Shown here: positions 5,838 through 51,789 of the stretch, piece by piece | Position numbering within the stretch: the first letter of the stretch is position 1 | Layout: each line of letters opens with the position of its first letter | Assembly: GCA_032718475.1 (NCBI GenBank) | Contig: JAUCBJ010008580.1 | Coordinates: 15,958-79,957 of the forward strand | Reading direction: 5' to 3' | Length of the DNA stretch: 64,000 nt | DNA from: Nemertoderma westbladi | Taxonomy: Eukaryota; Animalia; Xenacoelomorpha | Program-made: the position numbers and the translations under genes | The notes under the pieces: model-generated | Seen by the model: only the letters and a program-made list of their open reading frames with translations | The model's database searches: none | Told to the model about the DNA's origin: nothing

Positions 5838-5959
5838 GTTTGATTGTACGATTGAATGCCTACTACTATAACGACAGTTAAAGCAAGTCTAGTAATTCAG
5901 TATCAACTGTTAGCCTAGTAATTAATTACCGATATCGTTACTTAATGTAACGCGATATA

Positions 5960-7802: not shown

Positions 7803-7813
7803 AAATCTATTAC
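7803..7813 (-). promoter_or_regulatory. Non-tRNA primer-binding site of BEL A (GTAATAGATTT, element sense)
   Basis: Directly abuts the LTR terminal CA; does not start with TGG; exact complement lies inside the LTR at 8540-8550. Confidence 0.6.
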
Positions 7814-20600: not shown

Positions 20601-20899
20601 ACAACCTTACAGCTACAACATTAAAACCTTTTGAACAAGGAGATTTAGTTGATGTTCAGAATAAAACAACCCATAGATGGGATCGACAAGGGATTGTTCA
20701 TGAAACCAATGTTCCTCTCCGCACTTATACAGTTGCTTTCAACAATGGGGCACATCTCATACGGAACAGACGATTTCTTCGCCCTTTGTCCAACTTTCAA
20801 CCACCTCCGGGAACTCACCCAAGCACGCTACCAAATCCACCACTACGACGAAGCACACGACTAAGATCCAATCAATATAAAGGTGAAGGGAACCCTTAA
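17627..20899 (+). pseudogene. Gypsy pol (RT-RNase H-integrase) interrupted by a solo LTR
   Basis: KLDAAKGYWQ, IVDDCL, WTDASCLNGLG, ELEGLA, KTDHNPL, AADALSR; HHCC zinc finger; integrase resumes at 20222 (RTDRGPQY, SNGHAES). Confidence 0.92.
19590..20151. mobile_element. Solo LTR (562 bp) inserted in the inner Gypsy integrase
   Basis: TGTGAC...CTAACA flanked by TSD TGATC; splits the integrase core. Confidence 0.88.
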
Positions 20900-20911
20900 G
20901 GGTCGGGGGCG

Positions 20912-21335
20912 TGTGATGTAATACCAGTCGAGGTTAATGAACTCATAACCTGACATGGGTGCCAGAAAATCATTATTACAATATTAACTGTAATTCTCAA
21001 GAATGATTATTTTCGCTCAGATTATTGACCTTCGGTTAATGTATTATAAACATTAGGTGATGGGCTTATTGAGTTGGGATATTAGATAGGTATACCATAT
21101 ACTACTACTGTGTAGTTTATTGACCTATGTTTGATGTATTGTAAAACATCTGGTGACGGGTTAATTGAGTTGAGATATAGTTTATATCATTATCTTGGTG
21201 TAAAAAAGATTTATTGTTACCAACACCGATTGTGTTGGATTTAATAATTTCAAAGATTAATATAGGTAACATTTATGTTTCTATAAATTATATTTTGAAC
21301 TTACATATTATGTATCTTATATTGATACCACAACA
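20912..21335 (+). repeat. 3' LTR of inner Gypsy
   Basis: Direct repeat of 15155-15578; followed by GTATG. Confidence 0.95.
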
Positions 21336-24251: not shown

Positions 24252-25446
24252 TGTTCGCGCTTTTAGACCTTTAGCAGTTTAACCTGCCAAATTTAATTGT
24301 CTTTTTGTATATCAATTATTTAATGTACTGAAGTTACATCAGCCGAAGCCAGCCTGTGCGCGACCATTCACCCATAGTTAAGGGAGACTGGATTCGGATG
24401 CTTTGATAGTGATTGCAGTGTAGACCTACTGTATTATTCGATTGATCGTTAATATATAATCTCTGACAATATATTCACTTTCGGGGAAATATTAACAGTT
24501 CCTTTAGGACGTGGCGCTTTAAGTATAAAACAGAGTTATGACTTATACTAATCACAACTGGATGGCTACTGAGTTTCGTAAAAAGCGCATTCTTTAGGAG
24601 ATGCTTTATTAACCTTCACACTACTTCACACGACTTCACACTAGTTCACACTACTGCGCACTGATCTGCCGACCGTCACTGAATTTGATCATATATAAGG
24701 AGGATCGCAACTGACACATGTAGGGATTATGAAATAGCATTTAATTCACACAAAAACCACTATAATGTAAGTCGCAGTTGCTACCGGTAAACCTGTTCCT
24801 CTAACCTTTAGTAATCAAGAAGATTGGGGTTTTTATGATTATTCATCGGTATTCTCCAAATATATCAGCAATATACACCAACATAACACCAATTAATAAC
24901 AGAATCAAATAATGCGGTGAACAGTCAGTATGTGTTACTTATGCAGTGTTCCATGTGCAGCAATGCATGAATTGCGGTGTGATGCGGTAGTTGAATCGCG
25001 TTGCGTAGTGCCGCGTTAATAGTTTTACGTTCTTGTAATCAAAGCCATCTGATGTTTCTGATGTTTAGGTCAAAGTCTGAAACTTCCAACACAGAAGTAC
25101 AGAAGAATTTCCAAGCAGTTCTCTCGCTCAGAAAGGTAAACAAAGACAGTAAGGCATTGCGTGGTTTTCCGTAGGCCTCTGTACAAGATAAAATGAAAAT
25201 CGCTCTGATTGGCCGAGCCTGAACAAAGAGAGGCTCCACGTGTACAGTAAATCAGCTGGCAGATTTCGTCATCGGAGTTCCAGTCTTTTAGAGTATTAGG
25301 CGTATTGCGTCAGAAAATGGCTTGTTATGTCCGCTAAAACACCTACAAGGTACATTGCGGAGAAAATGGCTTGTTATGTCCGCTAAAACAACTACACAGT
25401 TCATTGCGGAGAAAAATGACTTGTTTTATCCGCAAAAGCTTTTACA
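24252..25446 (-). repeat. 3' LTR of BEL B
   Basis: Homologous to 7814-8962; TGTTCG...TTTACA; adjacent CCGCTCCC on + is the PPT. Confidence 0.88.
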
Positions 25447-25472: not shown

Positions 25473-27077
25473 CTATAAAATATAAAAAATCACAGTTTCT
25501 AAAATATAAAAATACTCTAAACAGTTAGTTCTTCTTACGTGAATGGCGTTTACGCAGTTTTTTGAGGCTAGCAAGAGTCCTTTTCTCTTTGGGGCGAGCC
25601 ACTTTACTTGGAGGGCTATAACTCCTAGGTGAAGGGTGCAATACAATTGCATCAGAAGGTTTAGGGTTACGGTCGGTGTATCCGCCGGTCGAGGTACCCG
25701 GTTGATCGGTATCAACCTCAGCGGAACGAGGTCGAACAACCTTGAGAGCGCGTTTTAAGACAGCAGCTCTTACTGGTCCCTAACGGGTCGTTTGCACAAG
25801 AGCGGTAGGTGGACCGTGTGTAGTAAGAAATTTCCTCGGTTTGATGGTTCTTTCCAACTCGCTCTCGGGCTCTATCGGAATCGATATGCTTCTCCTCGAG
25901 CTGATTTTCCTCCGCTTGTCGTAGGAAGCATTCGTCCAAAACTCTTTCAGAGAGTAGGGTCGTCCAAGTTCGATATCTTCTTAGAGATTCTGGATTTCCC
26001 GATTAAACTGAGATAAAGCTGATTCGTTTACCGCTTGGACTTGCTGCTGCAATTTACGTTTCTCTAAACAATCGTAGGTTCCTTTTTCGATCTTTTGTCG
26101 AATAGTGTCTAACACGTTTCGTACAACTCTCTCCTCCACCTCGGTGACAGGTTGTATCGGGGTTAAACCGGGACGATTAGACGGGTTGAACGGCGATATT
26201 AAATGTCCGCGTCCCAATCCGGCTAGGTAGGATGGGCGAATATCTAGGGAGCCCACAACCGGAGTGCCACTGACTAATTGTTCGGGTAACACTAGATCTT
26301 TGAACAATGAGCACAGCTCAGGAGGATCCATCATACTATTAGGATCAAGAGTCTGAGGTTTCACCAGGGAATGAGGAGGTCTGACCGAGTATTCCGGAAC
26401 TCCAATCAGAGGTTTATTTAAGGATCGTTTGAGTCGAGCGAGCGTAGGTGATAAGTCGAACAAGTTTCGCTCGAAACTCCCGTAAATATAGCAAGTAAAA
26501 CTGTGTTTAGCGCAACGTCTCCGCGGATGTTTATGTCTTTCCGGTCTGTTGGTTGGGTCTAGGGCATTCATCGTAATAATACCAAAGACGCACGTCTTGT
26601 AGGGGAAACGCTGGTGATCTTTCTCCAGTTTTACAATGTCTCTCTCAAGAATTCCAAATATACGTTGAAGTCACTGCGTTTATCCGGTTCTTTAACGTCT
26701 TCTCTTTCGAGTTGGTTTCGAATAGAATTTTCGTGTTCGATTCTCAGTTTATCGTTCCGACTCCGCTGGGTATGATATTTAAATAGGATCATTTCCCTTT
26801 CGGTGTCTACATCGTCCATATCGTGTAAATCGATAGGATGGCCAGTAGTAAAGAAGTCTATATATGTACCATTACGATGCGTATAGCGAGCGGTGAATTT
26901 TCTATAGTCCAATTCACGCGTGAGCTGTTCCTTTGACATTGGCGGTTCGATATAACGGCCATCGTCCTCCGTAGTGGGTGGACTAGCGTCGCCGCGTATT
27001 AAACTATCAACAAACGCTTGCAATGGTAGGGTATATCGCTCCCTGATTCCAAGATCATCTTCTATCAACTCAGTCAT
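25473..27077 (-). pseudogene. Disrupted accessory ORF between pol and the 3' LTR of BEL B
   Basis: ORF pieces 26631-27077, 25981-26571 and 25718-25939; motifs DTE..YHT, DFNVYLEF and RCAKHSFTCYIYGSF resemble the N-terminus of ORF 47383-51135. Confidence 0.6.
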
Positions 27078-27869
27078 AGCTGCTATATGAGTTTATCGAT
27101 ATTATAATTAATTATAATTTAGGCTAGCGGTCGTTGCTGCCTCCCCCTCAATGCCCCCGGACAGCGCAAGCTCCTCAGCGCTGATGTACTGTCGCCGCTG
27201 TGTCTATCGCCAACATAGTAGCTACACAATGACAACAACAACCAGCGCGAGTCACTCCACTGTCCGTCCCAAGGGCTTAGATTTACTTCAGGTTCTTACT
27301 GCAGAGGTAGGGCTACTTTCACAACTGCGACTCGCTACTGTAAACACACTTTAGTAGTAACATTCACCTATAAACGCACAAATTCCACACAACTGTCACA
27401 AATTGTACACATTCGGGCCATTTGTCCGTTAGTCAAGTGCCTTCCAGAATGCCACGTTATTATTATGTATCCCTGGATACTAGCAGTGCGCTATTTATTC
27501 CGTATGCTATTCAATGGGGCAAGCTTTCTATTATTCTTTTAACTCGCTTCTAATTCTAGCGTGGTTGTTGCTATGGTGACATTATGGAAAGCTAGCAGTA
27601 GAATTAGGGTAATTCTCATGCATACAGATCTGGGATGCTATTTAATAGTAATTCTTTAATTGTCAATATTCCCCCTTATACATGATTTTATGAATTTTAT
27701 CGGCTATTGACTATATATTGGAGATTCTCTCACGCTAATATACTTAATAGGGTGAATCTCCGCTCCCATGATCTATTAATTAATGAAATTTTGGGAATGT
27801 TATAAATTGTATAAAATGACAATTTATCAAATTCATGAGAAGATATGAATTTAAATTTATTCCCGTAAA

Positions 27870-28804: not shown

Positions 28805-29325
28805 TTACGTTGGGGAGTCCCTAGATGTTTGTTGGATTAGGGAGGTGGTCGTGGGAAGAGTATCTTGCCTTCCATAGTTTCCGGATAGTTCTCGGTCTCT
28901 TTCCAGTAAACATAAACGACCAACTGGGCGATTGAGTTGTTGTGTTTCGAATAAAGTTCCAGGTTTCTTCTTCGTCCTGGAATAGTGACGATGGAAACAT
29001 CGCTTCAAATACACGACGGCCTTAGAAAGCCGATTCCAGGAGCTATAGTGGTTTATTGCTCTCTGCAGGAGAGGTGAGAGCCCCTGCGAGACGTCTGGTG
29101 TTCCAGATTTCCAGTCTCTTTCTCTGATTTCCACAACAGATTTATTTGTGGCGGGGAGTTTAGATCCACAGCGTCGTCCCCTGAAATGTGTAGTACAGAC
29201 AGATCAATCATGGGTTTAAATAACATTGATTTACTCGTCCGGGTTTTAGGTTTGACTTTCTCCGCTCCCTTGGCTTGTCTAATCTCAGCCGTGGTGAGAT
29301 GAGGAGGCCATTCATCCTCTTCTGC
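28805..29325 (-). pseudogene. BEL pol remnant (post-RNase H linker joined to integrase C-terminus)
   Basis: EEDEWPPHL (~29300), HYSSWNRLSKAVVYLKR, then LNRPVGRLCLLE, which matches the pol end of element C (VDRPVQRLVLLE). Confidence 0.75.
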
Positions 29326-29327
29326 TT

Positions 29328-30602
29328 GTGGTAGCTGCCAAAATATACAATAAAATGATTCTATATAGGATTAGGCCTCACATAGAGAAACTACTGCGTA
29401 AGAGCCAAAACGGATTTCGACCAAGTAGATCAACAATAGCTCAGATACTTGCACTACGGAGACTGATTGAAGGAATCAAGTCAAAGAATCTCCCCGCAGT
29501 CATGACTTTTGTGGACTTCAAGAAGGAATTCGACTCCATCCATAGAGGTAAAATGCTTGAAATCCTAAGAGCTTATGGAATACCAGAAGTAATTGTTGCT
29601 GGCATTGGATTGCTATATTGTGACACAGAAGCGCAGGTACTCTCACCAGATGGTGAAACTGAGTTTTTCTCAATCCTGGCTGGCGTACTGCAAGGTGACA
29701 CATTAGCACCATTACTATTTGTAATTGTGCTGGATTACGCAATGAGGACGGCCACAAAGGGTGAAGATCTGGGATTCACACTTCAAGAACGCAGAAGTAG
29801 TAGATATCCGGCAACTACAGTCACAGACACCGACTTTGCGGATGACATCGCCCTGCTCTCTAATACGCTAGCAGATGCACAGCTTCTACTAAATAAAGTG
29901 GAGAGGGCTGCTAAGGAGGTTGGATTGCATATAAATGCTACCAAGACCGAATTCATGACCTTTAATGTTGATGGAAACTTGACAACCATTGATAATGATA
30001 ATAATCAACTAAGGCAGGTCGATGACTTCCAGTACCTTGGATCATGGATAGAGAGTAGCAAAAAGGACATAGAAGTTAGGAAAGCAAAGGCTTGGGTAGC
30101 TCTATCAAAAATGGATACCATCTGGAAATCAGATCTCTCCAGGCACCTGAAGACCAAGTTCTTTCGAGCCACAGTGGAAAGTGTATTTTTATATGGGGGT
30201 GAGACCTGGACACTGACTAAATCACTTGAACAACGAATTGATGGTTGCTACACAAGACTACTAAGGGCAGCCCTAAACATCATCTGGAGACAACACATGA
30301 CAAACGCCGAGCTTTATGGTACAATACCACCTGTATCAACCACCCTCCGTGAACGCAGATTAAGATTCAGTGGGCACTGCTGGCGAAGTAAAGACGAGGT
30401 CATACCAGATCTACTTCTCTGGCAACCAACTCATGGAAAGCGTAGTCGTGGACGACCTGCCATAACATATATAGATCAACTTGAAAGGGATACTGAACTT
30501 GGGAGAAACGAAATTGCGACAACTATGGAGAATCGGGAAGCCTGGAAGGATCTCATTTCCACTGTCCGAGTTCGCTCGACCTAGTAGTAGAGTAGTAGTA
30601 GA
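29328..30602 (+). mobile_element. 5'-truncated RTE-clade LINE with an open RT-containing ORF (29328-30584)
   Basis: QNGFRPSRST, TFVDFKKEFDSI, GVLQGDTLAPLLF, DFADDIAL, FQYLGS, RRLRFSGHCWR, RSRGRP; (TAG)n tail directly after the stop. Confidence 0.92.
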
Positions 30603-32987: not shown

Positions 32988-34436
32988 CCCTATTACCACT
33001 GGGGTGTTTTGACCATTAGCACCACTGGGGGGGGGGGGGGGGGGGGGGGGCGATTCGGCCCACCCACTATATTTTTGTAGTCGTCTGATGAAATCCTACA
33101 AAAATTGGGCTGTTGGTGAAACAACTATAGATGAACACTACCAAATCTTAAAAAGTTAAAATTTCATAAGCAGGGTCTCATAATTTTGATGAAAAATAAA
33201 AGTAGTCCCAGGACAAAATTACAAAATTTTTCGTTTTATAAAAACTAATAGTGTGGCAGTGTTGGCTAGATTTAGTAGGTTTTTCAAGACGCTGAATCGA
33301 ATGTGATTATATTCCACTTCCAAAAATTGAAGTGGATGCTATTTTTCGTGCACCTAAGAAGTGGGCGTGGCACTTCAAATTTTGAAAAATTAGATATTCA
33401 GAAAATGCCCCTAATTTGTTTATTTCAACGCATCTTTATGGGTTTTCTGGCCGCTGAATCGATTGAAAGTAATATAGAAGCCTGAAGACTGAGTGGTTCG
33501 CCATTTTTGGTGCACCAAAATTAGGGCGTGGCACTTCAAATTTTGAAAAATACGAGATTCGGAAAATAAACCAAAATTGAAATTTTAACGAATTTATATA
33601 GGTTTTCCAGACCGCTGAATCGATTGAAAGTAATATAGAAGCCTGAAGACTTAGAAGTTAGCCATTTTTTGAAATCAAAACTTTAGTGTTTTTTCCGAAT
33701 AAAGAAATTTTGAAAATTTGAAGTGCCACGCCCTAATTTTGGTGCACCGAAAATTACGTACACAAAGGACTTGAGGCTTGCTTGGGGTTCTATATTACTT
33801 TCAATCGATTCAGCGCTCCAGAACACCTAGAAAATTAATTTGAAATCAAAACTTTAGTGAATTTTCCGAATCTCGCATTTTTCAAAATTTGAAGTGCCAC
33901 GCCCTAATTTTGGTGCACCAAAAATGGCGAACCACTAAGTCTTCAGGCTTCTATATTACTTTCAATCGATTCAGCGCTCCAGAAAACCTATAAAAATGCT
34001 TTTCAAATCAAAACTTTAGTGTATTTTCCGAATCTCGTATTTTTCAAATTTTGAAGTGCCACGCCCTAATTTTGGTGCTCCAAAAATGACGTACCACCTC
34101 ACTTACATACGTGTATAGAGCATTAGAGTAATCCAAACCAATAAAAATAAATAAACATAGCCCAAACATAAATAATTACTAAATCACGAATGACTTTGTA
34201 AAATTCGAAAATTTCAAAAAATTTGGTGCTGGAGACCAAATTTTGAGGTGGCACCCACATCGAAAAGTAGAAATCCAATTGCAACGGCGTTTTTTGCAAA
34301 AGATGCGGCATTAAATTTGGCTAATTCTCACAAAAAATTGGGCCGGTACGTAATGTGGTTGCATAGTTACAGCAACTAAAACCTAGGAAGGGGCCGATAC
34401 GCCCCCCCCCCCCCCCCCCCCCCAGTGGTAATAGGG
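32988..34436. mobile_element. piggyBac-type MITE
   Basis: TTAA TSD; perfect 17-bp TIR CCCTATTACCACTGGGG / CCCCAGTGGTAATAGGG; internal ~170-bp units in head-to-head arrays. Confidence 0.9.
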
Positions 34437-34758
34437 TTAAAGGCCACCAATTATTCTACAAATCTTAACGCCTAAGAATATTTATTTTCACTTTCAAACC
34501 TTTTTAACTACAAGCGTTTGAAAAGTGTTTTATTGAGTCTATTTAATTACTATCTATTAGGGAGAAGGGGGGGGGGGGGGGGACTGGACGCAAAACCCCT
34601 TCTTGGCGAATTAATATCCCGCCTTGATGAATTATTTCACTATAAGGTAGCATTTGTAGTTTAACTTTAACGTAAAAACTTTTGAAAATCCGACGTATTT
34701 TGATTAAGTTACAGTAATGTAATATGCCTATTTATATTTGTACACATAAAACCCTTAG

Positions 34759-34849
34759 GTACTCTCGTGGCGTAGTGGTCAGATGGTTAAGGCGTTGGTT
34801 ACATTACGTAGGTTATGAGTTCGAATCCCAGTCGGGAAATTTGTATTTT
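34759..34849 (+). ncRNA. tRNA-like Pol III cassette in the LTR (not a canonical tRNA); second copy at ~51924-52014
   Basis: A box TGGCGTAGTGG, tRNA-Ser/Leu-like TGGTTAAGGCG, B box AGTTCGAATCC, then TTTT. Confidence 0.55.
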
Positions 34850-34883
34850 GGGGCAATTTATTTTCGTGTGGTGCTAATTGATA

Positions 34884-35131
34884 GGCCAATGAGAAGCGTA
34901 CAGCGTAGCGAATAATGAGCCAGGCCAATCATAGGGCATAAATTACCTTATTGCTCAAATGTGAGGCAGTGGAAAATTCTGTTAGGATTCCATGTCCCAG
35001 ATTAGTGTAAGGGCTGGACTGCGTTGAACGATGAGCTGGGCCAATCATAGGGCACGACGCACTTCATTGCTCAATTGTGAAGCTGTGGAAATTTCTGTTT
35101 AGTTTCCATGTGCAATTTCTAGTATATAAGG
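34884..35131 (+). promoter_or_regulatory. Putative Pol II promoter in the LTR: three GCCAAT boxes and a TATA box
   Basis: GGCCAAT at ~34884, ~34923 and ~35039 within duplicated enhancer-like units; TATATAAG at ~35123. Confidence 0.55.
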
Positions 35132-36897
35132 CCGGTTTGCCTTCGGTTATGACTTCTACCCCCTTCGCTTCCAACGTTACTCTATCAGTTTACTTTTGTA
35201 AAATTAGTTAATTCGGTTTCTTGTTGAAACTTGTTTGATAAATCCTTTGTTAAAACTGTAAATATACTGCAATTTCCTGACATGTTTTCCTTTGGTCCGA
35301 CTTCGGGACAGCCGAACACCAGGGAGATGGCAGCCTAGACCGTTAGGCCATAAGCAACGCAGGGAAGGGATGTCCACAACACGCTAGCGCCCACATTGGA
35401 TCGACCGCGCACCCCCTTTGCCCCCCTTCGAAATGCTCAACTTGCCATGCAGCGCCCGCTTTGTGAGAAAGGTAAGACTTTGTTCGACGCCCTTGCCCGC
35501 CGTAAGACCTATAGATCAGGGTAAGCGTGACACCGCACTGGACGCCGCAAATTTAGGATCAAATAATTATATCCAGACACCCCCCCCCCTTCTTGTCAGT
35601 CCTACGAACCCCTGGGTTAACCTGTACTTCCTACAGGTGCGAACTATTGCCATTCGTCAGTACGCGAGTACACATTAGGCACGGACAGCATATGTTCCAT
35701 AATTTAGTGAGTCGTAGCACTGACTGTTTGGTACCGGTTCGCTTTGTAGAACGTACATTAGTACCCCCCCCCCCCCCTTGTCTGGAGTTAGCTATTTGAT
35801 CAGGCAAGGAGTATTTCTGCTACCGGCACACTGCTTGGCCTAGGGAGGTTTATTAATATCCTACCGCGCCTTGCCACGTACTGATAGGTATTGCTGCTAA
35901 CTACCGCAGCAACAAAGTTCTAGAATTAAATTAGTATACCAGATCAGCTAACGTACGGTAGCGATTAACCCCTATTCTTATCTTACAACCAGAATCTGGT
36001 ATTAGTGCCGATCACGGGTGTAGTTACTAACACTGTGGTTGCCCATTGGGTTGTGGATAGGAAGGAGAGAGCTTTGACGTCATTCGTGAGTATAAAGTTC
36101 TACAAACGCGACTAGTTTATTTTAGTAGCTAGCGCACGGTATCATTTTAGTCAGAAAATCACTAAAACCTAGTAAAAGGAATTACCCGAAATTGTTTTAT
36201 TTGTAACACACCCACACACACACGCCCTAAAACATATCGCCCTTAAAGTTCTACTAGCTATAGCGTACTATACATTACGTTAGGTGGAAATTATTTGTAT
36301 TTGTACAATTAGGATCTGATTTGATTGCGGCAAGATAAGGAGTATTTCACTTTCGTTATTAAACTGTTGTTTGTCTGGACAACGGTATTGTTACATTTAG
36401 GCCTGACCCTTTAGACTGATTTCGTACAGGGGGATCAGTTATTGTTACATTTAGGTACGACCCCTTTTCGACTGATTTAGGACTGTCAGTGTTGTTACGC
36501 TAGGTCTGTTAACCCACTAGCTCGTATATAACCCATATAAATCACACCGCGGCAAGTTACTGTATTTAGGACTGTCAGTGATAGTTAGGATTCGCTGCGT
36601 GGGGATTGTTTTCCCGTGAGTTTGGTCTGTTACGGTAACTGTACATCTGCCTCACCGGTTAGAGGACAGGTATCCTTCTGTCTAGTACGTAGGCATTAGA
36701 CCCGCTCACGTACATAGAATAGATACAAGGCTCTGTTCCTCGCCAGTAGTCGTTTGTGTACTATATCTGTTTGTTTAGATATCCTGGACTGGGATTTGTT
36801 TTCAGATACTGTACAAGCCCGTATACATTACTAGAGTCTCATAGTAAGATACATCGTTACTAGGATCTGGTAAGCGGTATACTACTGGACCCTTACA

Positions 36898-36908
36898 GTA
36901 GGAAGTAC
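36898..36908 (+). promoter_or_regulatory. Non-tRNA primer-binding site of BEL C (GTAGGAAGTAC)
   Basis: Abuts the LTR end; exact reverse complement GTACTTCCTAC at 35624-35634 (and 52794-52804). Confidence 0.62.
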
Positions 36909-37803
36909 TATATAAATTAGTTTATAGTATTATTTCGATTGTTAGCTATTGAAAGTAGGAGATATTAAAATTTAAGGTTAGTAAATTTAGTAATTTAGAA
37001 CGTCCCCTGCTTCAGTAGGCTTTTAGGGTAGCTAGTACTTTCGTATTTAATCTTTGACTAGCTAACAGTTAGTTTGTAGCACTTTGTTTTACGCCGTGTG
37101 TGTGCGGTGTTACTTTTCGGTACTTGAAAAGGTACATAGGGTTTAAAGACCAATTTGTATCGGTACCTAGGAAGATTTTTCGTAAGCGTAGAAGTAAAAC
37201 TCTCACCTTCGACCTTTTCAGGACTCAAGGACTCATTTCTGGACCGCTTCGAGGATTAGACCGCTTTTCGCAAAGTTTGGGAGACAATAAATTCGTCCGC
37301 GCCGCCGAAAAACGGAAAGACCCACGTCCGGTTTGTATTTGGGAATTTGTACGACTGGAAGATCAAAGGAACGTAAGTTTTACGACTCGCGTCGTTTAAA
37401 CTTAAGAAAGCACAGTAGTACTCAAAATTTGTGGGTTTCACTGTCTATTAGTAGTGTTGTTGGTACATATTTTCCCTTTAGACGTTGCTGTTTGGCCTAT
37501 TGTTTTACTTGTTGATCTACATTTTGTTAACGTATATCGTTATCTCACTTATTCGTACAAATTTAGCCGGTAGGCTAGATTACTACTTATTTTATTATAT
37601 ACCTTGTTAGTTTATTTGTACCGGTTAGGGTATATATATGATATATATATATATCAAGGTAAGTTTGACATTTGTGCATTTCGACATTTTGACATTTCGA
37701 CATTCTGACTTGTTGATTTATTTGTACCGGTTAGGTAAGTTTGACACTTCAACATTCAGACACTTGACATTTTATTACCCGTACTTGACGTATATAATAA
37801 GAC

Positions 37804-40800
37804 ATGAGTGACACACCCCATTCGACGAGATACCCACCTACCGACTATGACTCGTGCGACCCGGACAGATCGACAGTAGACGAACCTAGAAGGAGAACCC
37901 GAGATTCCACCGATGTCACACCGCTTGCGTCGCCGGTACCCCAAACGGAAATACCGGAAGCCGCAACGCGTGGCGACGGCAGAATCGAAGATTTCCTTAC
38001 CGTCCCGCAGACTAGATCGCGGGAACCGGACATGGTAAGTTCGACTGGGAGCCAGGAGAACGTTATTAGAAGTATAGGAGGACACATGGCCCAGATTACT
38101 CGGAACCTCGGAGAAGGTTTTCGCGTTTTACGCGAGTTAACCGCCCCGATGTCGAGATACGAGTTCTACACCTTACAGGTAAGGATAGAAAGTAGGGTAC
38201 ATGCCTCCGTAGATAAACTTAAAGGTTTGCACGAACTTGCAGAGTTGCGTGGCGACAACTTTACTCAGGTAAAGATAGTGGATAAATTGGTAAGTGCGAG
38301 AGAAAGCATTATCCAGTTTAAGTCGGTAATAAGCTTGGCTCAACAGGAGCAGTTCGACCAACTGCTAGGTGAGTCAGTTTCGGACGCGTTGTTACAACCC
38401 GAAGAGGAAGAAGAACTCTACTGCCTGGACGGAAGGTTGGAAACGCTGACCAATTTTCTTCGTAGATGCGGCGTACCGATCGACGAACCGGAAGTCGAAC
38501 CGCGAGGGACGACGGAAGTTCTCACTACGGAAGGCTCGCGAGCCTACCAACATCCACCACTGGATAGATCGTTCGTTAGCGTACGGAGCGACGTTGGCAA
38601 CGTTGGCGACGTTAGTAGAACAGCGTCTGGAATTACTCGACAACAACAGGAGGTTGCACGCCGACAACAAGTCGCCGAGGAAGAAGCGCGACACCAGATG
38701 GCACAGATCGCCATCGAAGGAGAGAAACAACGTAGAGAAGACGAGGCAAAAATTGCACAACTCAAGGCGCAAGCTGAATTCGAAGCATCAGAAATGCGCA
38801 GATTGGAGGAAGACTTAGCGCGAGAAGCGGCCGCGGCGGCAGCAGCGGACGAGTTAGCACGGAAGAAAGCAGCATCAGACGCTCGTGCCAAGTTGGAGGC
38901 GCGGCAAATAAACGCTCGATTAGCTATACAGGAAGCGGAATTAGCGGCACAACAACAGGACGCAGATCGACGCGAAAGGGAGATGCAACTACAGTTCGAA
39001 TTGAATCGTAGATCGCGCGAGACAGCGAACGCGCAAGCGGACCTCGAACTCGACGCGAGAGATAGATCTATGAGATCGCGGACTGGACACGACTTGTCTG
39101 CCCTGGATCGTATGGAAGCTCGATATCGCGGAATACAGAAGCGGATCGAGGAAGGAAGCGTGGGAGCGATAGATCGAGGAGAGGAGTTCGTCGAGGATTA
39201 CTGTAAACGTTTTCCCCAAGTTATTCCTATGCTCAAACCCACGACTCCGATAAAACCGGTCTTCGTTACGAAACCTAAGGAAATAACGCCAGTGCGTTCG
39301 ACGCAAGGCAACAGGTTTGTTGTGACGGAAATACCGCAACCTAGGGCGACTTCATCGCCAATTTTAGCAGGTAACGTTACTAGTCCACCTACAGTAAGTC
39401 GTAGTCTACTTGTAGGAAGAGAGGAACCTGCGTTTATGACCATTAAACAGGTGAGTAAACCATTACAAGTTAAACCTGTGACGTGCTGTGCAAATCCAGT
39501 TATTTACAGACCGACTACGAAACCCGACTATTTCACTCGACCGTTGACACAATGTTCGACGCAACCTACGACTTCGTGGAAGGCTTGCGAGCCTACCGAA
39601 CTACGAAGGAGGATGGATGTGGGTAGTACTCACGGGATCGGACAACGTATAGCGAGACCTACGACTTCGTGGAAGGCTTGCGAGCCTACCGAACGACGGA
39701 GAGCCGTAGATTCCGGACCACAACGGACGAGACCCAGGATAATACGCCGGACACGAACCCGCCAGCCACCTTATCCGGACGACAGCGATTCATCTAGTGA
39801 CTCGGAGTCGACGGAACGGGAAATATTCCGTACTGGAGCGGCGGAAGATTGTAAACGGGAGGAACGATCGACGAATCCATACATCGACAATCCTCCACGA
39901 GAAACACCCCAACAGAAACCCACGTTGAAACCAGCGGAAACGATCAGCGCTAAACAGTTCACCGAGATGACGGACAGAATAGCTCAACTCGAAGAACGAC
40001 TCGAAGCGCAACCGTCGGATCGATCACGGACCAGCGTGGAATTGGAACAACCTAGACAACATCGACCACCGAGGAGAGAACAGGAGACTAGACGGACTCC
40101 GACACATCGAGAGGAAGATCCCGTTAATAATTCCTACCGACGAACAACGCGCGGAAGGGAGCGACTGGACGACGCCACCGAACAAGGACGCGGACAGTTG
40201 GATTTAGTTAGCGAGATTGCGAAATTCGCGGCTAGACACGGATTACCGGCACAGCAACCGCCGAAGTTCTCTGGCAACGCGAAACACTGGCGCACACTGG
40301 TAGACTACGTAGAGTCCCAGATCGCTAAGTGTGCTTTCACCTCGACGGAGAAGTTTAACTACTTGCTCCAAGTCCTGTCTGGTGAGCCGAAACGATTAGC
40401 GGAAACCTTTATAGGTGTTCCCGATGCCTTCGAGTTGGCGTACGACCGTTTGTATTCGATTTACGGCGGTAATGTCGCCATGGCTAAATCCATCATAGAA
40501 GACCTCTGCAGAGGAGGCAACATTTCGAGACCGATCGATCTTTTACGACTCGCGGACGAAATAAAGAACGCTATAGGGACTTTACGGTCCATTGGGCAAC
40601 TCGAGTACGCTAACGCACCGACGGTTCTCATTCGAATAATCGGTCGACTTCATCATCGACTACGACGAGAATGGCGACGCATCGAGTACCAGCGCGAAGA
40701 GGCCGGAGGGTTATTAAAACTCACCGATGTCTATCAACTTATTTCACGGGAGGCCGTGATCGAGACTCGATCGAACTATACCGATCACCATATCGCGGCG

Positions 40801-43800
40801 GAAGGGATAACTGTTTCTGCGCCGAATCGGACTAAACCATTTCCGACGAACGCGAAAGCCGTTACTTACGCCACCCCTACTGAGACTTCTAAAGTTCTGA
40901 CGCCTATCGGCACCACGCAGCCACGACAACAGTTGCCGGCGGACTTTGTGGGATGCTCATACTGCGAGCGGAACGGCAGAAACCATAGCGGACATAAACT
41001 ACGTGCATGTCGCGCTTTTAAAGAGTTAGGGATCGAGGAGAGGAGACTCCAAATCCGATCTCTAGATTCCTGTTGGAGATGTATGAAGCCAGGACACGTC
41101 CGGAAGGATTGCCCGAGCGATGATACATGTTCTTTGTGTGGACGTAACCATGACGCGTTGCTTCACACAACCAGTCATACTCCGACCCGACGCTTTCGAC
41201 GAGAGCATCCAGATAAAGCGGCTAGATGCGACGCGCTTTATAAGGAGCGTGCGCCGCGCGAGATCCGTACCTTTTATACCGACTGTATGGATCAGTCAGG
41301 ATCATCGGAAGAGGACGAGGAGGAAGACGACACTTTCTACGTGCATGCAGGTGAGGAACAACCATCGATAACGCTCCTCACACAGAACCAATTGAAAGGG
41401 TTTAGCGTGATTCCTATAAAGATTACCGGGACCCGAGGGAGCAAGCGTATATACGCCATCTTAGACTCTGCGTCATCGCATAGCTATGTCGACGAACAAG
41501 TAGCCGACGTAGTTACGGACTTGAGTCAAGGTAAGACTGCTCAGTATACTGTAAGCAGCATGCATGGTAAGAGAGCGATTCCTGTGACAAGAGTAAAACT
41601 AACTTTAGACACTCTTCTTTCCAAAGCGGAACACAGCAAGGAGGAGCGCTCATTACTTCCGGTAAGAAATTTGACCTTTGCAGCTACGAAGGACTTTAGT
41701 AACTTGCTCGGCCCTGTGCCAGAGCAATCTCCGGAAGATCGTAAGTATTTCCGACACCTTGGAATACCGGAATGTCCTGTCAATTATCGTTCCATTGCGA
41801 TGTTAATTGGGACAGACCAGTTTAACTTACATCAGGTATGGGAGACACGCCCATCTGTTATTACAGCGGGCAACCCCTACGCATGTAGAACTCCCATAGG
41901 TTGGTATACTAGAGCACCAATACGTTCACTAGAGGTAAGTGACCAGGAGGACGACGTTTTGAGTACGTGTAGTTTATTGACTAACACGATAGATAATTCT
42001 CCCTCACACTCCTGTGGTCCAATTGTACGGACGGCACTACGACAGACTTGCGTCACTAACGCAGACGCCACCGATACTGACGTAACCGATCTGGACACGA
42101 CCATACGGACCTCTGACTTACAACTACTTGCAGTAGACCAGGTTGTATTGACTACTGAAGACCTGAGGGTTGTTGCTGTGGATGACTCGATGAACGAGGA
42201 TTTTGGAAGGCTTGCGAGCCTACCGAAAAATCCGAAGGTCATTGACCCCACCCACCAGGCTTCGACACCGGTCGTTGATCTTGGAAGGCTTGCGAGCCTA
42301 CCGATAGATCAAGAAGTTGTCAAACCGCCGCACGACAATTCGACGCCGACTAGTGACACCGGAAGGCTTGCGAGCCTACCAGACACATTGACACTAGCCA
42401 CCGCAGCGGACGAAGACGTGGACGAGGACCATGGCGCAGTGCAAGCAGCGCTTGACCGACTGCTGACTGAACGGACCATACAATGGTTGGAACAGGACTC
42501 AGCAGAACCCGGTAGTTACGAGACCGCTATGTCAGAACAGGAAAAACGGTCATTAAATATTATGAGAGATACCATTCGCCAGACCGCGAATGGCCACTAT
42601 GAGGTTGGTATGTTGTGGTGCAATGGACAACCTAAGCTCGTTAACAATTACCCGCTTGCTTTGAGGCGACTCAAATCAATAAGGCAGCGATTGTTGCGAG
42701 ACGAGACGGCCCATATGCAATACAATGCACAACTTCAGACGTATCTCCAAAAGGGATACGCCATTAGGATGTTAAATCCTGAGGTAACTACAGACCAGAC
42801 ATATTACCTGCCACATCATTTTGTTCGACACCCGGACAAACCTGGCAAGGTGCGTGTAGTCAACGACTGCGCTGCACTTTACCAAGGGATGTCTATGAAT
42901 AGCGAACTGATGGACGGGCCGAATATGAACAATTACCTCATGGGAGTCCTAATGCGTTTTAGACAACGCAAAGTGGCTTTCACCTGTGACGTAGAGGCCA
43001 TGTTTCACCAGGTTAAGGCTTTGGAGCGGGACAGGGACAGTTTGAGGTTTCTTTGGTATCCGGACGGAAACTTACAACTTCCGCCAGAAACTTACCAAAT
43101 GCAGGTAAGAGTATTTGGAGCCAGGGACAGCCCCAACTGCACCATGTACGCATTGAAGCAGACAGCATTAGACAGACGAGACCAATTTGACCCAGAAGTA
43201 GTTCGGACCATGGAACGAGACTTCTACGTGGATGACGGCCTCAAGAGTTGTGACACCTTGGAGCGCGCTACAACCGTAGCACACCAACTCCAGGATTGTC
43301 TCGCTGAGGGCGGATTTCACCTGACGAAGTTCGCTTCCAACGAACCCGAACTGGTGAACTCATTTGACCCGATGGACCGTAGCGGAGGTGACTTGGACTT
43401 AGACCTAGAACCTCTGCCGACGACCAAAGTACTAGGACTTAGTTGGGACCCTAACACCGACAATTTTAGGGTACGTGTAAGGTCCAACGACCAGACTAGA
43501 CCTCTCACTAAGAGGACTTGCTTATCGACCATGAGTCGATTGTATGACCCATTGTGTTTCATTAGTCCAGTGATCCTACATGCCAGGATCATACTCCGCA
43601 GCATTTGGCAAGCCGGACTGGAATGGGACGATCCCATCCCAGAAAAGTTAGCTGAGCGATGGAGGGACTGGGAAGCCCAACTGACGTTCCTACAAGACTA
43701 TACCATACCAAGGGTATACTTTCCTTTGCAAACCACCTTTCCTGCCGATTTAGAGCTTCACAGCTTTAGTGACGCTAGCAAGGATGGATTGGGGGTTACT

Positions 43801-46644
43801 TTATACCTTAGACGACAAGTGACATCGGACAGCTACGATGTATCTCTCGTTACTTCAAGGGCTAGAACAATGCCATTGAAGTATATGACTGTACCTCGTG
43901 GGGAGCTGCAAGCCGGGACGATATCCACCGATATTGTCAGTCTAGTTCAACGCGAGCTGGAGGCTAACTTGAAGGTCACATATTGGACGGATGCGACGTT
44001 GGTACTTTGGTACATAAACAACGAAACATTTGAGTTCAAGACTTTCGTAGCCAACAGACGGGCTGAAATACTAGACCGGTCGCTCAAACAAGATTGGCGT
44101 CACTGTCCAGGGAAGCTGAACCCAGCTGACATCGCGTCACGGGGAATGCAACCACTTGACTTTTGTAAACCGGACAATAAATCCTTTTGGTTTAGAGGAC
44201 CCGATTTCCTACAGCGACCATCAGACGAATGGCCACCGTTATTCGACGCGACAACCAACACCATACCAGAGGGTGCCGAGATAAAACTCGACAAGGTTGT
44301 CAAGTCTAAAGCGAAAGCCAACGCCAAGGTCAAGAGGAAAAAGGGACGGACGAAATCTGATGACCTGGACGCCAGACCTGACATTACGCCAGACGTCTCG
44401 CCAGACACTCGACCAGACGCTTGTACGAATCCTTCGCCGGATGTTCCGCGGGAGATTTCACCAGACGTTTCGCCGGATTGTTCACCAGATTACTCGCCAG
44501 ACTATTCACCAGAAGAGACACCAGATTGTTCTCCGGATTGTTCGCCAGATTGTTTGATGGAACTCTCGACAGAATGTCTACCGGACATCTCACCAGATTG
44601 TTCACCAGACATCTCGACCGACTGTCCACCAGACTTTGAATCAGACTTTCTGACAGAAGTTGCGCTAGACAGACTTTGGGACCGACGACCGGACATTTCG
44701 CCGGATGTTCCGCGCTATGTCTCACCAGACGTCTCACCAGACTGTTCACCAGACGCTTCACCAGACTGTCTACTAGATACTCCATTAGAAGACCCATTGG
44801 AGCGGACTTTTAGAGACGTACTAAATTTGACTTCTTTGGACGACAAAGGAGTAGCCACAGGGATTACACTCCGCTCGAAGAAGGTACTTGACTTACCTAC
44901 AGGTAAAGTGGTGACTAAGGTTAGGAAGCTTACAGGCTCACAGGAACACACTGACACTGTAGAGTTGAAACCATTACTGCCAGTCGACATATTAGGTGCG
45001 GACGGCAAAGGTAAGACCGTAGAGATTGACGTACTTGGGGACTCAGACAAACCTACCGGAAGGCCCGTGGGCCTACCAAGTCCAGACAAGTATCCACACT
45101 ACGACTACACCTTACCCGATGACGTCACTAACACTTACGTAGACAGGATAGTGAACCTAACTAGATCATGGACTGACGCGTGCCGCAAGTTAGCATGGCT
45201 CAAACGATTGAGACAATATGCCAGAGGCAAACGCGACTTTCCTAGAAGACTTACCTTAAAGGAAATTGAACACTGTGAAGTTGATATCATTCGACATTAT
45301 CAATTGCGATATTTCGCACGAGAGTTCACAGCGATCAAACAAGGTAAACAGATTAAGTCTTCACCGATTTTGAGTTGGAGTCCGATTATTTACCGGGGCT
45401 TACTTTGTCACAAGTCCAGACTCCAAAACATCGACTTTGCACTTGACTTTAGGTATCCTATCATCATACCGCAACACCATGAGTTACAGCGCGCTATGAT
45501 ACTGGACGCACATGTACAACTCAAACACGTAGGTAGACACCACTGTCTATCACACTTACGCTCGAGGTTTGTACTGATTAGACCTAGTAAGGCACTGAGT
45601 TCAGTAACACGGAACTGTATTATTTGTAAGAAGGTGCACGCGAGGATAGGACACCAAGAAATGAGTGAACTACCATTAGCTAGATTACAGGCATTTAGAC
45701 CCCCTTTCACTGAGACAGGGATAGACTGTTTTGGACCCATAATCGCGAAACGCGGAAGGGTACAGGTAAAACGTTGGGGATTGATCTTCACTTGCATGGC
45801 CAGCAGAGCTGTCCATATAGAGCGAGTGACAGACTTGTCCACCAATGCCTTTATCCTAGCCTTACGGCGATTTATCGCTAGACGTGGATTGGTCAAATCC
45901 ATATACTGCGACCAAGGGACAAACTTTGTGGGTGCACGGAACGAGATAACCAGAGCTTTGAGAAAATTGGACCAAAACCAGATTTCCGAGGAACTACGTC
46001 CTCACCGTATTGTTTGGTTTTTCAATACTCCAGACAGTCCGTGGAGAGGCGGCGTTTGGGAAAGGCTGATTGGCTCAATAAAGACAGCTATGGCTAAAGT
46101 CGTACCGACGCAACACATCTTGACAGACGACCAACTGACGACGTTACTAATAGAAATCGAAGCAATCTTAAATACCAGACCGATCGCTTTGATCCCACAC
46201 AATAACGACGTACAGTTTGCCTTGACACCAGCGCACCTGCTTATGCAGGCGCCGACGACACTGTTGCCCATTTCGGTACCCGTTGATAGTGACGGATACG
46301 GCAACAAGGCTTGGAAAATCACTCAATTACTTGCAAATAAATTCTGGGAAATATGGCAGAAATATTATTTGCCCTCTATTTCGACCAGAACCTCTTGGTA
46401 TATAAATACCCGGTGTTTAAAACGTGGTGACCATGTTTTATTGGCTGAAGCCAATCTGAGAAGACGGTTTTGGCTGACTGGAGTCATTTTGACCACGCAC
46501 CCTACATCTGGTGTAGTGAGGACAGTTACTGTACGGACTATCGACGGACGTACCGTAGATAGGCCTGTACAACGTCTCGTACTCCTCGAGGAGACTAGAA
46601 ACGAGACGGGAGACTACAAATCTCCACCCAATATTAGTAAATAG
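37804..46644 (+). CDS. BEL/Pao Gag-Pol polyprotein, 2946 aa, uninterrupted
   Basis: Gag PKFSGNAKHW..EKFNYLLQVL; three knuckles (CSYC..H..C, CWRCMKPGHVRKDC, CSLCGRNHDALLH); protease AILDSASSHSYV; RT FTCDVEAMFHQV, FYVDDGL; RNase H HSFSDAS, RGELQA, WTDAT, NPADIASRG; integrase HHCC, GIDCFGP, CDQGTNF, WERLI. Confidence 0.97.
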   Translation: MSDTPHSTRYPPTDYDSCDPDRSTVDEPRRRTRDSTDVTPLASPVPQTEIPEAATRGDGRIEDFLTVPQTRSREPDMVSSTGSQENVIRSIGGHMAQITRNLGEGFRVLRELTAPMSRYEFYTLQVRIESRVHASVDKLKGLHELAELRGDNFTQVKIVDKLVSARESIIQFKSVISLAQQEQFDQLLGESVSDALLQPEEEEELYCLDGRLETLTNFLRRCGVPIDEPEVEPRGTTEVLTTEGSRAYQHPPLDRSFVSVRSDVGNVGDVSRTASGITRQQQEVARRQQVAEEEARHQMAQIAIEGEKQRREDEAKIAQLKAQAEFEASEMRRLEEDLAREAAAAAAADELARKKAASDARAKLEARQINARLAIQEAELAAQQQDADRREREMQLQFELNRRSRETANAQADLELDARDRSMRSRTGHDLSALDRMEARYRGIQKRIEEGSVGAIDRGEEFVEDYCKRFPQVIPMLKPTTPIKPVFVTKPKEITPVRSTQGNRFVVTEIPQPRATSSPILAGNVTSPPTVSRSLLVGREEPAFMTIKQVSKPLQVKPVTCCANPVIYRPTTKPDYFTRPLTQCSTQPTTSWKACEPTELRRRMDVGSTHGIGQRIARPTTSWKACEPTERRRAVDSGPQRTRPRIIRRTRTRQPPYPDDSDSSSDSESTEREIFRTGAAEDCKREERSTNPYIDNPPRETPQQKPTLKPAETISAKQFTEMTDRIAQLEERLEAQPSDRSRTSVELEQPRQHRPPRREQETRRTPTHREEDPVNNSYRRTTRGRERLDDATEQGRGQLDLVSEIAKFAARHGLPAQQPPKFSGNAKHWRTLVDYVESQIAKCAFTSTEKFNYLLQVLSGEPKRLAETFIGVPDAFELAYDRLYSIYGGNVAMAKSIIEDLCRGGNISRPIDLLRLADEIKNAIGTLRSIGQLEYANAPTVLIRIIGRLHHRLRREWRRIEYQREEAGGLLKLTDVYQLISREAVIETRSNYTDHHIAAEGITVSAPNRTKPFPTNAKAVTYATPTETSKVLTPIGTTQPRQQLPADFVGCSYCERNGRNHSGHKLRACRAFKELGIEERRLQIRSLDSCWRCMKPGHVRKDCPSDDTCSLCGRNHDALLHTTSHTPTRRFRREHPDKAARCDALYKERAPREIRTFYTDCMDQSGSSEEDEEEDDTFYVHAGEEQPSITLLTQNQLKGFSVIPIKITGTRGSKRIYAILDSASSHSYVDEQVADVVTDLSQGKTAQYTVSSMHGKRAIPVTRVKLTLDTLLSKAEHSKEERSLLPVRNLTFAATKDFSNLLGPVPEQSPEDRKYFRHLGIPECPVNYRSIAMLIGTDQFNLHQVWETRPSVITAGNPYACRTPIGWYTRAPIRSLEVSDQEDDVLSTCSLLTNTIDNSPSHSCGPIVRTALRQTCVTNADATDTDVTDLDTTIRTSDLQLLAVDQVVLTTEDLRVVAVDDSMNEDFGRLASLPKNPKVIDPTHQASTPVVDLGRLASLPIDQEVVKPPHDNSTPTSDTGRLASLPDTLTLATAADEDVDEDHGAVQAALDRLLTERTIQWLEQDSAEPGSYETAMSEQEKRSLNIMRDTIRQTANGHYEVGMLWCNGQPKLVNNYPLALRRLKSIRQRLLRDETAHMQYNAQLQTYLQKGYAIRMLNPEVTTDQTYYLPHHFVRHPDKPGKVRVVNDCAALYQGMSMNSELMDGPNMNNYLMGVLMRFRQRKVAFTCDVEAMFHQVKALERDRDSLRFLWYPDGNLQLPPETYQMQVRVFGARDSPNCTMYALKQTALDRRDQFDPEVVRTMERDFYVDDGLKSCDTLERATTVAHQLQDCLAEGGFHLTKFASNEPELVNSFDPMDRSGGDLDLDLEPLPTTKVLGLSWDPNTDNFRVRVRSNDQTRPLTKRTCLSTMSRLYDPLCFISPVILHARIILRSIWQAGLEWDDPIPEKLAERWRDWEAQLTFLQDYTIPRVYFPLQTTFPADLELHSFSDASKDGLGVTLYLRRQVTSDSYDVSLVTSRARTMPLKYMTVPRGELQAGTISTDIVSLVQRELEANLKVTYWTDATLVLWYINNETFEFKTFVANRRAEILDRSLKQDWRHCPGKLNPADIASRGMQPLDFCKPDNKSFWFRGPDFLQRPSDEWPPLFDATTNTIPEGAEIKLDKVVKSKAKANAKVKRKKGRTKSDDLDARPDITPDVSPDTRPDACTNPSPDVPREISPDVSPDCSPDYSPDYSPEETPDCSPDCSPDCLMELSTECLPDISPDCSPDISTDCPPDFESDFLTEVALDRLWDRRPDISPDVPRYVSPDVSPDCSPDASPDCLLDTPLEDPLERTFRDVLNLTSLDDKGVATGITLRSKKVLDLPTGKVVTKVRKLTGSQEHTDTVELKPLLPVDILGADGKGKTVEIDVLGDSDKPTGRPVGLPSPDKYPHYDYTLPDDVTNTYVDRIVNLTRSWTDACRKLAWLKRLRQYARGKRDFPRRLTLKEIEHCEVDIIRHYQLRYFAREFTAIKQGKQIKSSPILSWSPIIYRGLLCHKSRLQNIDFALDFRYPIIIPQHHELQRAMILDAHVQLKHVGRHHCLSHLRSRFVLIRPSKALSSVTRNCIICKKVHARIGHQEMSELPLARLQAFRPPFTETGIDCFGPIIAKRGRVQVKRWGLIFTCMASRAVHIERVTDLSTNAFILALRRFIARRGLVKSIYCDQGTNFVGARNEITRALRKLDQNQISEELRPHRIVWFFNTPDSPWRGGVWERLIGSIKTAMAKVVPTQHILTDDQLTTLLIEIEAILNTRPIALIPHNNDVQFALTPAHLLMQAPTTLLPISVPVDSDGYGNKAWKITQLLANKFWEIWQKYYLPSISTRTSWYINTRCLKRGDHVLLAEANLRRRFWLTGVILTTHPTSGVVRTVTVRTIDGRTVDRPVQRLVLLEETRNETGDYKSPPNISK
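44371..44770 (+). repeat. In-frame 12-bp minisatellite encoding (S-P-D-x)n between RNase H and integrase
   Basis: SPDV/SPDC/SPDY/SPDI units; TCNCCRGAY repeats. Confidence 0.9.
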
Positions 46645-47382
46645 ATGTGGGACCTTGGTTGGCCGCCACATAGACCTACTGTATTTTAGTTATTTGTATT
46701 TGTATTACTGTACGTGCATTTGTAATCCTCTTCACTGTAGATAGAGACAGCGGTGGAATTCCATTGTCTTTATACGTGAACATGGAGGGTAGTACCCTTA
46801 TGTATCACATAGGAGCGGGATTGTGTGTACAGTAGGAATGGAATTCCACTTGGAACCCACAAGTGAGACATTTTCAAAAATTATTAGACAAATCCATTTA
46901 TTTGGATTTAAATTTAAGAAAAACGATTCTCCAGTGAAAGCAAATTCTAGAATACAGCTAGAAAAAAAAAAAAATTAAAATTGGGGAGGACAAGAGCGGA
47001 TGGAAGGCTTGCGAGCCTACCGATAAATTTTTTTTGGAAAAGAAAATCGGTCTTGTTCTACGTAGTCGTGTCTACTATTATTTTGACCAATTAATTCTCG
47101 ACTGCACTATTTTTCTTGGAAAACGTAGTTTGGGAAATTAAAAGGTGAGTATTTTAGACTCGCGGCTAGTTTACCCGGAATTCGTTTTTTATCGGCACAA
47201 TTTTGGATTAGGAGCCAGTGCGAAATTACGCGAACCCGAAATCATTAGGCAAAATGGGTTGGGGTTTAGAGCAGAGTTGAGCCAAAAGCCGACAAACTCT
47301 GAAGTCACCTCACATCTAACCTCTATTTTGTGCTTCATCTAGTAGAAACGTAACGATATGTAACCACATATATTCGTATACA

Positions 47383-51135: not shown

Positions 51136-51169
51136 GAAGCGAGTGGAAGGAAGGCTTGCGAGCCTACCG

Positions 51170-51280
51170 ATTTGGATATTATATTTGGATATTATATTTG
51201 GATATTATATTTGGATGTTATATTTGGATATTTTATTTGGATATTTTATTTGGATATTTATATTGGACATTATGTTTGAA
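51170..51280 (+). repeat. 13-bp tandem repeat (TTTGGATATTATA), ~8 copies
   Basis: Directly visible in the 3' UTR of element C, between two hairpin motifs. Confidence 0.85.
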
Positions 51281-51782: not shown

Positions 51783-51789
51783 GGAGCGG
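51783..51789 (+). promoter_or_regulatory. Polypurine-like tract before the 3' LTR
   Basis: GGAGCGG|TG; element B has GGGAGCGG|TG at the same position. Confidence 0.7.

Follow-up and report, generated by a model that had tools for sequence, protein, structure and literature searches.

Results

Retroelements in the window

The window, a stretch of 64,000 nucleotides from the Nemertoderma westbladi genome, carries a young, intact BEL/Pao retrotransposon, here called element B, as well as related and unrelated elements (Table 1). The two LTRs of element B are only 4 substitutions and two poly-C length changes apart, and the end of its 5′ LTR is set by the 3′ LTR copy and by the CGCCT target-site duplication (TSD) on either side. 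Its gag-pol frame encodes, in order, DUF1759, a zinc knuckle, a protease with DSAS, a reverse transcriptase (RT) with YVDD, an RNase H with DASK, Peptidase_A17, an integrase and DUF5641; the Pol motifs lie at residues 1222, 1809, 1991 and 2642-2754, in the order PR-RT-RH-IN. Peptidase_A17 was matched in Pfam with an E value of 1.4e-39, DUF5641 and DUF1759 were likewise found, and PF05380 is present in all of the 120 Pol homologues listed. Among the matches listed, the closest RT-region homologues are BEL/Pao polyproteins with at most 46% identity, and those that are named come for the most part from marine invertebrates. By its Pol domains, together with its LTR pair, purine tract and TSD, element B belongs to BEL/Pao (Belpaoviridae).

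Several further features of element B were noted. Between RNase H and integrase, Pol contains a long insert of four-residue repeats of the SPDx type (44300-44800). An 81-bp block containing CCAAT is duplicated upstream of the TATA box (34915-34995 and 35031-35111), and U3 holds a tRNA/SINE-like stretch (34757-34840) with A-box and B-box-like motifs recognized by eye; neither ARAGORN nor Rfam called this stretch, and the 11-mer described below is absent from it. A second open reading frame, ORF2, follows gag-pol and resembles, by eye only, a DEDD-type 3′-5′ exonuclease. Searches with ORF2 gave no Pfam match beyond its zinc knuckles, none in PDB or among longer proteins, and no homologue among 1.84 billion representatives except one spurious match. 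That match, P0123, was dropped because it covers a 40-residue repeat, and the predicted model of ORF2 (pLDDT 32.5) is unusable.

Elements A and C lie on the opposite strand. A and B are sister lineages (SH-aLRT 98 in a quick tree) whose LTRs do not align, and a 34-nt leader motif is the only notable likeness between their non-coding 5′ regions. Between pol and 3′ LTR, element C retains ORF remnants (25981-27092, minus strand) with no tblastn similarity to ORF2 of element B, and its pol remnant is adjoined by a LINE-type RT (29298-30584). A Gypsy element (15154-21335) has 425-bp LTRs that are 99% identical and begin with GTGTG. Long inverted repeats at 61877-62498 and 33331-34097, of 240 bp at 96% and with nested units of 160-300 bp, suggest MITE- or foldback-type elements.

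Table 1. Coordinates of the features of elements A, B and C within the window.
Feature	Position	Strand	Remarks
Element B	34625-54068	+	19,444 bp in total
TSD CGCCT, both flanks of element B	34620-34624 and 54069-54073
5′ LTR of element B	34625-36897	+	2273 bp, TGATG...CTTACA (TG...CA)
TATA-like box TATATAA (TATAAAA in 3′ LTR)	35123-35129	+	predicted start near 35150
Splice donor AAG/GTAAGA	35469-35477	+	joined to 37222 in one run X4 contig
Further donor-like sites	35502 and 35521	+
Strongest acceptor-like site of transcribed LTR and leader	35583-35599	+	24 nt upstream of primer; candidate only
7-bp hairpin around primer	35620-35638	+	-7.2 to -8.3 kcal/mol; not significant, not general
Candidate self-primer GTACTTCCTAC	35624-35634	+	LTR position 1000-1010; ends in AC
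Candidate primer-binding site (PBS) GTAGGAAGTAC	36898-36908	+	flush with LTR end, zero spacer, no TGG
Leader motif common to B and A	36926-36959 (B) and 7632-7601 (A)	+ (B), - (A)	82% over 34 nt, E 0.002
Splice acceptor, pyrimidine tract and CAG	37200-37221	+
gag-pol of element B	37801-46644	+	uninterrupted, 2947 codons
ORF2 of element B	47320-51135	+	1271 codons, two zinc knuckles
Purine tract GGAGCGG	51783-51789	+	flush with 3′ LTR; same motif precedes element C LTR
3′ LTR of element B	51790-54068	+	2279 bp; second primer copy at 52794-52804
gag-pol of element A	39-5888	-	stops, frameshifts; cut by window end; RT 46% identical to B
PBS of element A GTAATAGATTT	7803-7813	-	flush with LTR end; second copy 7744-7734 within 69-bp duplication
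5′ LTR of element A	7814-8962	-	1149 bp; end set by 80%-identical LTR of element C
Candidate primer of element A AAATCTATTAC	8540-8550	-	LTR position 413-423
3′ LTR of element C (element A LTR family)	24252-25446	-	5′ end and PBS absent from window

Primer-binding sites that match their own LTRs

An initial annotation, made from the letters of the window, placed the end of the 5′ LTR at CTTACA and noted that the site that follows without a spacer is not the usual TGG. The 3′ LTR and the TSD confirm this boundary. No TGG follows the LTR in either A or B, and the 18-nt tRNA-Arg or tRNA-Gly site described for BEL/Pao is found in neither. Because the CCA end of a mature tRNA needs TGG at the PBS to pair, it cannot pair in these elements. 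A missing TGG alone proves nothing, since the Gypsy element in the same window also lacks TGG after its 5′ LTR and has no self-match longer than 4 nt.

As had been proposed, the site at 36898-36908 is the exact reverse complement of 35624-35634 upstream in the LTR, and also of 52794-52804 in the 3′ LTR; these are the only three matches with at most one mismatch in the whole window. The duplex is exactly 11 nt, with no extension on either side. It closes with C35634:G36898 directly beside the LTR end, the point from which minus-strand synthesis has to start. Of 8000 dinucleotide-shuffled LTRs, 6 contained the 11-mer. The first-order Markov expectation of 0.0010 is about twice the chance of about 0.0005 given in the initial annotation. 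Out of 14,802 internal positions, the PBS among them, only 3 are complementary to the LTR over 11 nt. A primer built by splicing was rejected for both B and A, in which the best spliced matches at offset 0 (9 and 6 nt, respectively) are shorter than the contiguous 11.

The LTR of element B is densely covered by contigs of four runs, and the family was found in DNA runs of several studies, none of the listed runs being recorded as RNA. No variant site falls inside the primer or the PBS among 40 of 219 variant rows listed, which is uninformative. In run X4, four contigs diverge from element B at 36890, 7 nt before the LTR end; they possibly belong to a sister subfamily whose LTR end and PBS are different.

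The initial annotation stated that element A has this pattern too, and it does: its LTR (8962-7814) is followed by a site at 7813-7803 with an exact 11-nt complement at 8550-8540, found in 5 of 8000 shuffles. The PBSs of A and B differ at 6 of 11 letters, each of which is exactly matched in its own LTR; this covariation is one between families and not a column-by-column aligned test. The PBS of element A and the last letters of its LTR are repeated at 69-bp spacing (7813-7734), and this duplication is present in runs X1, X2 and X3 (three runs, two studies). Another candidate PBS for element A, GGTAGGAACAC near 6830, was discarded, being a 7-nt match found by eye away from the true LTR end at 7814. 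In element C the site equivalent to the primer differs from that of A. A correspondingly shifted PBS for the C subfamily, predicted beforehand from the C LTR, was not among 24 of 62 loose-end rows listed, C being a degraded copy. These rows indicate A-family members that keep the first four PBS letters of A and diverge further on, in contigs that are unphased to the primer site.

Self-matches among outside relatives

Metagenome contigs were scanned for further BEL/Pao elements, and the best 79 of at least 511 confirmed loci, from at least 600 candidates, were retained. Twenty-five loci with a distant repeat were inspected, and 10 were kept in which a second LTR copy sets the 5′ LTR end; for L014 this end was taken from the sister locus L016, itself excluded as a duplicate. 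LTR pair identity is only 74% for L004 and 84% for L051, and the LTR ends of L051 and L065 were placed by eye, within 2 nt. A match was counted if at least 10 nt paired at offsets 0-6, either contiguously or across a GT-AG junction. A viral contig set yielded no relatives.

Self-matches of 10-12 nt occur in 6 of the 10 relatives. Two are contiguous and 11 nt long (L004, L058), and four, of 10-12 nt, span a GT-AG junction with a canonical donor and a pyrimidine-rich acceptor (L014, L025, L029, L056). With A and B included, the 5′ LTR end is mapped in 12 elements, and 8 of these match their own LTR over at least 10 nt, whereas only 1 of 132 cross pairs reaches 10 nt and none reaches 11. Under this looser rule, shuffled sequences matched in 1/300 to 8/300 trials over the elements (B, 4/150; A, 2/150; L025, 8/300). 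As the match rule was fixed after a first look at the spliced matches, these numbers are somewhat optimistic. The matched stretch ends in AC in seven of the eight cases, and in the eighth (L029) too if its twelfth pair is left off. Among the other relatives, L038 has no self-match and carries a TGG site 5 nt after the LTR end, and for L036, L051 and L065 no TGG site or self-match was found at up to 6 nt from the LTR end. The covariation among relatives that self-priming would lead one to expect is thus seen between families (A versus B; 8 of 12 own versus 1 of 132 cross pairs), but within families no phased change was obtained.

An exploratory set of nine loci without an independent LTR end gave junction matches of 10-11 nt in six, versus 3 of 72 cross pairs; two of the six are sisters of families already counted, and the filter demanded a GT start. 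Contiguous and junction primers are interleaved on a quick tree, where primer type is not clustered. In six self-matching relatives the gap between pol and the 3′ LTR is only 59-276 nt. Hence a second ORF is not needed, and RT/RNase H is the common candidate nuclease.

Transcription start and splice signals

The TATATAA at 35123 lies 501 nt upstream of the 11-mer. Elsewhere the distance from TATA to primer is 31 nt (L025), 122-124 nt (L058) or 11 nt (A, not kept in C), and no such box was found in four elements. The initial annotation had cautioned that transcription might start about 470 nt upstream of the primer, which would then be internal. A splice-like joint, 35471/37222, lends weak support to that caution, and together with the TATA box it points to an upstream start. 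The joint has GT..AG borders, its donor is strong and its pyrimidine tract long; it occurs in one X4 contig, with 25 letters on its short side and a likeness of 80, in a class that is often unreliable and a run whose type, DNA, is only guessed. If the joint is real, an intron at 35472-37221 would take out primer and PBS together, and transcription probably begins upstream of the donor, leaving the primer internal.

Each of the four contiguous primers is preceded, at a distance of 9-24 nt, by an acceptor-like site, a regularity noticed post hoc against a density of such sites of 0.9-2.0 per 100 nt. ATTAAA signals follow 301 and 734 nt beyond the start of the primer. In one deep X4 contig the primer region seems to be missing (joint 35490-35667, 26-letter side), which possibly reflects a deleted LTR or a subfamily that uses a different primer site.

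RNA structure around the paired sites

It had been suggested that the primer is displayed in a hairpin, ACCTGTA-CTTCC-TACAGGT, and that the PBS forms another, AGTA-GGAAG-TACT, giving complementary loops. The first can be formed on paper, but at 35620-35638 it is not better than shuffles (z -1.08, 30/200), and this primer-display hairpin is absent in A, L058 and L004. The second amounts to a marginal -0.5 kcal/mol and differs from the predicted local fold. A mechanism of hairpin display and complementary (kissing) loops is therefore unsupported: it lacks significance in B, is missing from A, L058 and L004, and local folds in 6 of 6 regions are no better than shuffles. Local stems are predicted where a flanking structure like U5-IR might be sought, and these too do not exceed shuffles (z -1.05 and -0.31).

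The 11-bp duplex itself has an energy of -15.9 kcal/mol in B and -9.6 kcal/mol in A, and when the whole region is folded, the pairing of primer with PBS has a probability of 0.000 for B and no more than 0.004 for A. In a cofold of B, local hairpins win and both sites are hidden, so that annealing would need a chaperone such as Gag.

Discussion

Self-priming as the preferred reading

Although the pairing described here was read from sequence, we consider it very probable that element B is self-primed in some form. The suggestion of the initial annotation, that priming in this BEL/Pao element is independent of tRNA, is supported by the family assignment, by the letters of element A and by 6 of 10 outside relatives. 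It is supported also by the geometry of the duplex, whose end is flush with the LTR end as in Tf1. As for the form it takes, a Tf1-like process with an internal primer freed by cleavage is the one we favor, with some reserve. Transcription would start near 35150, as the TATA box and the one splice-like joint indicate, and the 11-mer would lie several hundred nucleotides inside R. In the particle, 35624-35634 would anneal to 36898-36908, probably with help from Gag as a chaperone, and a cut after C35634, by analogy with Tf1, would free a 3′-OH paired to G36898 beside the LTR end. The RNase H of Tf1 cuts between bases 11 and 12 (PMC7175516, PMC4600332), and in element B the RNase H of the element's own reverse transcriptase would probably be the cutter. 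Strong-stop DNA would then copy 36897 back to 35635 and transfer to the 3′ R. An internal primer presents no problem as long as R extends past 35634. The plus strand would recopy the PBS from the primer, and the two sites would therefore stay matched as their letters drift; in Tf1, a PBS copied into DNA is present on about half of the cDNA (PMC11042837). Were 35471 spliced to 37222, the resulting mRNA would lack primer and PBS alike and could not be copied.

Other mechanisms could produce the same sequence pattern. For example, element B might be primed exactly as Tf1 is, with a second start, at 35624 or slightly upstream, giving the packaged RNA and the TATA box at 35123 driving only the spliced mRNA. 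The primer is of the same length, 11 nt, as that of Tf1, the L025 primer begins 31 nt after a TATA box, and alternative start sites of Tf2 decide whether its RNA is copyable (PMC5341516). We nevertheless hold this to be unlikely, as none of B, A, L058, L004, L014, L029 and L056 has a TATA box 25-35 nt before the primer; the spacings observed are 501 nt, 122-124 nt and, in A but not kept in C, 11 nt. Still less probable is that the pairing serves as a conserved RNA switch, or as a packaging or dimer contact, and that something else primes. Both sites do sit in alternative local hairpins and the self-priming reading rests on sequence, but against such a contact stand the duplex, which in B, A, L014, L056 and L058 stops precisely where the LTR does, its near-constant length of 10-12 nt, its AC end and the fact that no other primer site is visible. 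A shade lower we would place priming by the copy in the 3′ R (52794-52804), in which the 3′ part of the RNA pairs with the PBS and is trimmed by a 3′-5′ exonuclease encoded by ORF2. The primer is indeed present in both LTRs, upstream of ATTAAA signals; ORF2 has exonuclease-like motifs by eye, and the DEDDy ORF3s of rotifer LTR elements have been suggested to process element RNA ends (PMC5408684). However, ORF2 is without Pfam, PDB, homologue or usable model support, and an ORF of this kind would not fit into six of the self-matching relatives.

The LTR match might also be incidental, with priming left to a host tRNA fragment or some other small RNA. The family is described as tRNA-primed by the ICTV (PMC8742986), half-tRNA primers exist in Copia lineages (PMC6317226), and L038 has a TGG site. 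This would nonetheless demand that each of eight different sites have its own host RNA as well as a chance copy in its own LTR, four of them only after splicing, and A-family members vary within the site, unlike a site renewed from one tRNA; we therefore give it little credence. Finally, the match was found post hoc in a 2.3-kb LTR and might reflect chance or an assembly artefact. That is scarcely believable given a joint strict probability for A and B of about 1e-3 x 7.5e-4, the recurrence of the pattern in outside loci and the presence of the family in the DNA of several studies.

Comparison with known systems

Self-priming is a known mechanism, and what may be new is its likely occurrence in BEL/Pao, a superfamily described as tRNA-primed. 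Tf1/sushi elements have been described as self-primed, and the same has been predicted of Tcn1 and the Copia TAR lineage (PMC6317226, PMC4600332). As proposed here for element B, Tf1 and Tf2 of Schizosaccharomyces pombe, Tj1 of S. japonicus, Tf1/sushi elements and Tcn1 (Ty3/gypsy) use no tRNA, and an 11-nt LTR RNA is complementary to an LTR-adjacent PBS (PMC7175516, PMC4600332). Two hallmarks of Tf1 are found here, namely a complement of about 11 nt in the LTR to an LTR-adjacent PBS, and letters that change together across families. In contrast to Tf1, element B has a BEL/Pao rather than a Gypsy Pol and falls outside the Tf1/sushi clade, its primer is probably internal and not the first 11 nt, no stable flanking structure was detected, and the primer of its relatives is often split by an intron. 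The TAR lineage (Houba, Osr-1) of plant Ty1/copia elements offers another parallel, in that self-priming was predicted from sequence in an otherwise tRNA-primed superfamily; it belongs to a different superfamily and host kingdom, and the excerpts of PMC6317226 make no mention of an intron-built primer. Rotifer Juno/Vesta LTR elements resemble element B in having an extra non-env ORF after pol, in their case a DEDDy ORF3 (PMC5408684). The Cer7 element of C. elegans may combine a tRNA-like primer of its own with an exonuclease ORF, which the literature searched here did not confirm.

Element B shares with the Belpaoviridae (genus Semotivirus) its TG...CA LTR ends, 5-bp TSD, gag-PR-RT-RH-IN order, YVDD motif and Peptidase_A17, DUF1759 and DUF5641 domains. 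The ICTV describes the family as having an 18-nt PBS for tRNA-Arg or -Gly, LTRs of 0.2-1.2 kb and genomes of 4.2-10 kb (PMC8742986), whereas element B has no such PBS, LTRs of 2.27 kb, a length of 19.4 kb and an extra second ORF, the ICTV range being descriptive only. Since a tRNA PBS is a described trait and not the basis of the family's phylogenetic definition, element B marks a variant within BEL/Pao. The titles and abstract openings searched contain no report of self-priming in BEL/Pao; most subscription journals and repeat-database annotations lie outside that search, and an earlier mention is possible. A term search of two BEL/Pao papers (PMC3118150, PMC554778) likewise found no mention of PBS, tRNA or priming.

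Implications for BEL/Pao replication

BEL/Pao replication is poorly understood and is called tRNA-primed by the ICTV (PMC8742986); how reverse transcription begins in this group has so far been assumed rather than shown. It may be that self-priming is an unrecognised norm over a broad part of BEL/Pao, with a primer of 10-12 nt ending in AC that lies inside R, at or just after the 3′ end of an intron, and that is built by host splicing in many families. A further splice, in element B, would delete the primer along with the PBS, leaving the spliceosome to decide between genome and message. We consider the arguments for and against this broader proposal to be evenly balanced.

If self-priming in element B is true, it would occur in a third LTR superfamily and on several distant branches of the tree, which bears on the choice between an ancestral mechanism and repeated origins. 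For a primer that is internal or built by splicing, the RNA would have to be cut within a capped transcript. Self-priming elements may furthermore be beyond the reach of silencing by tRNA fragments, and the use of such primers would explain why annotation based on tRNAs would overlook these sites.
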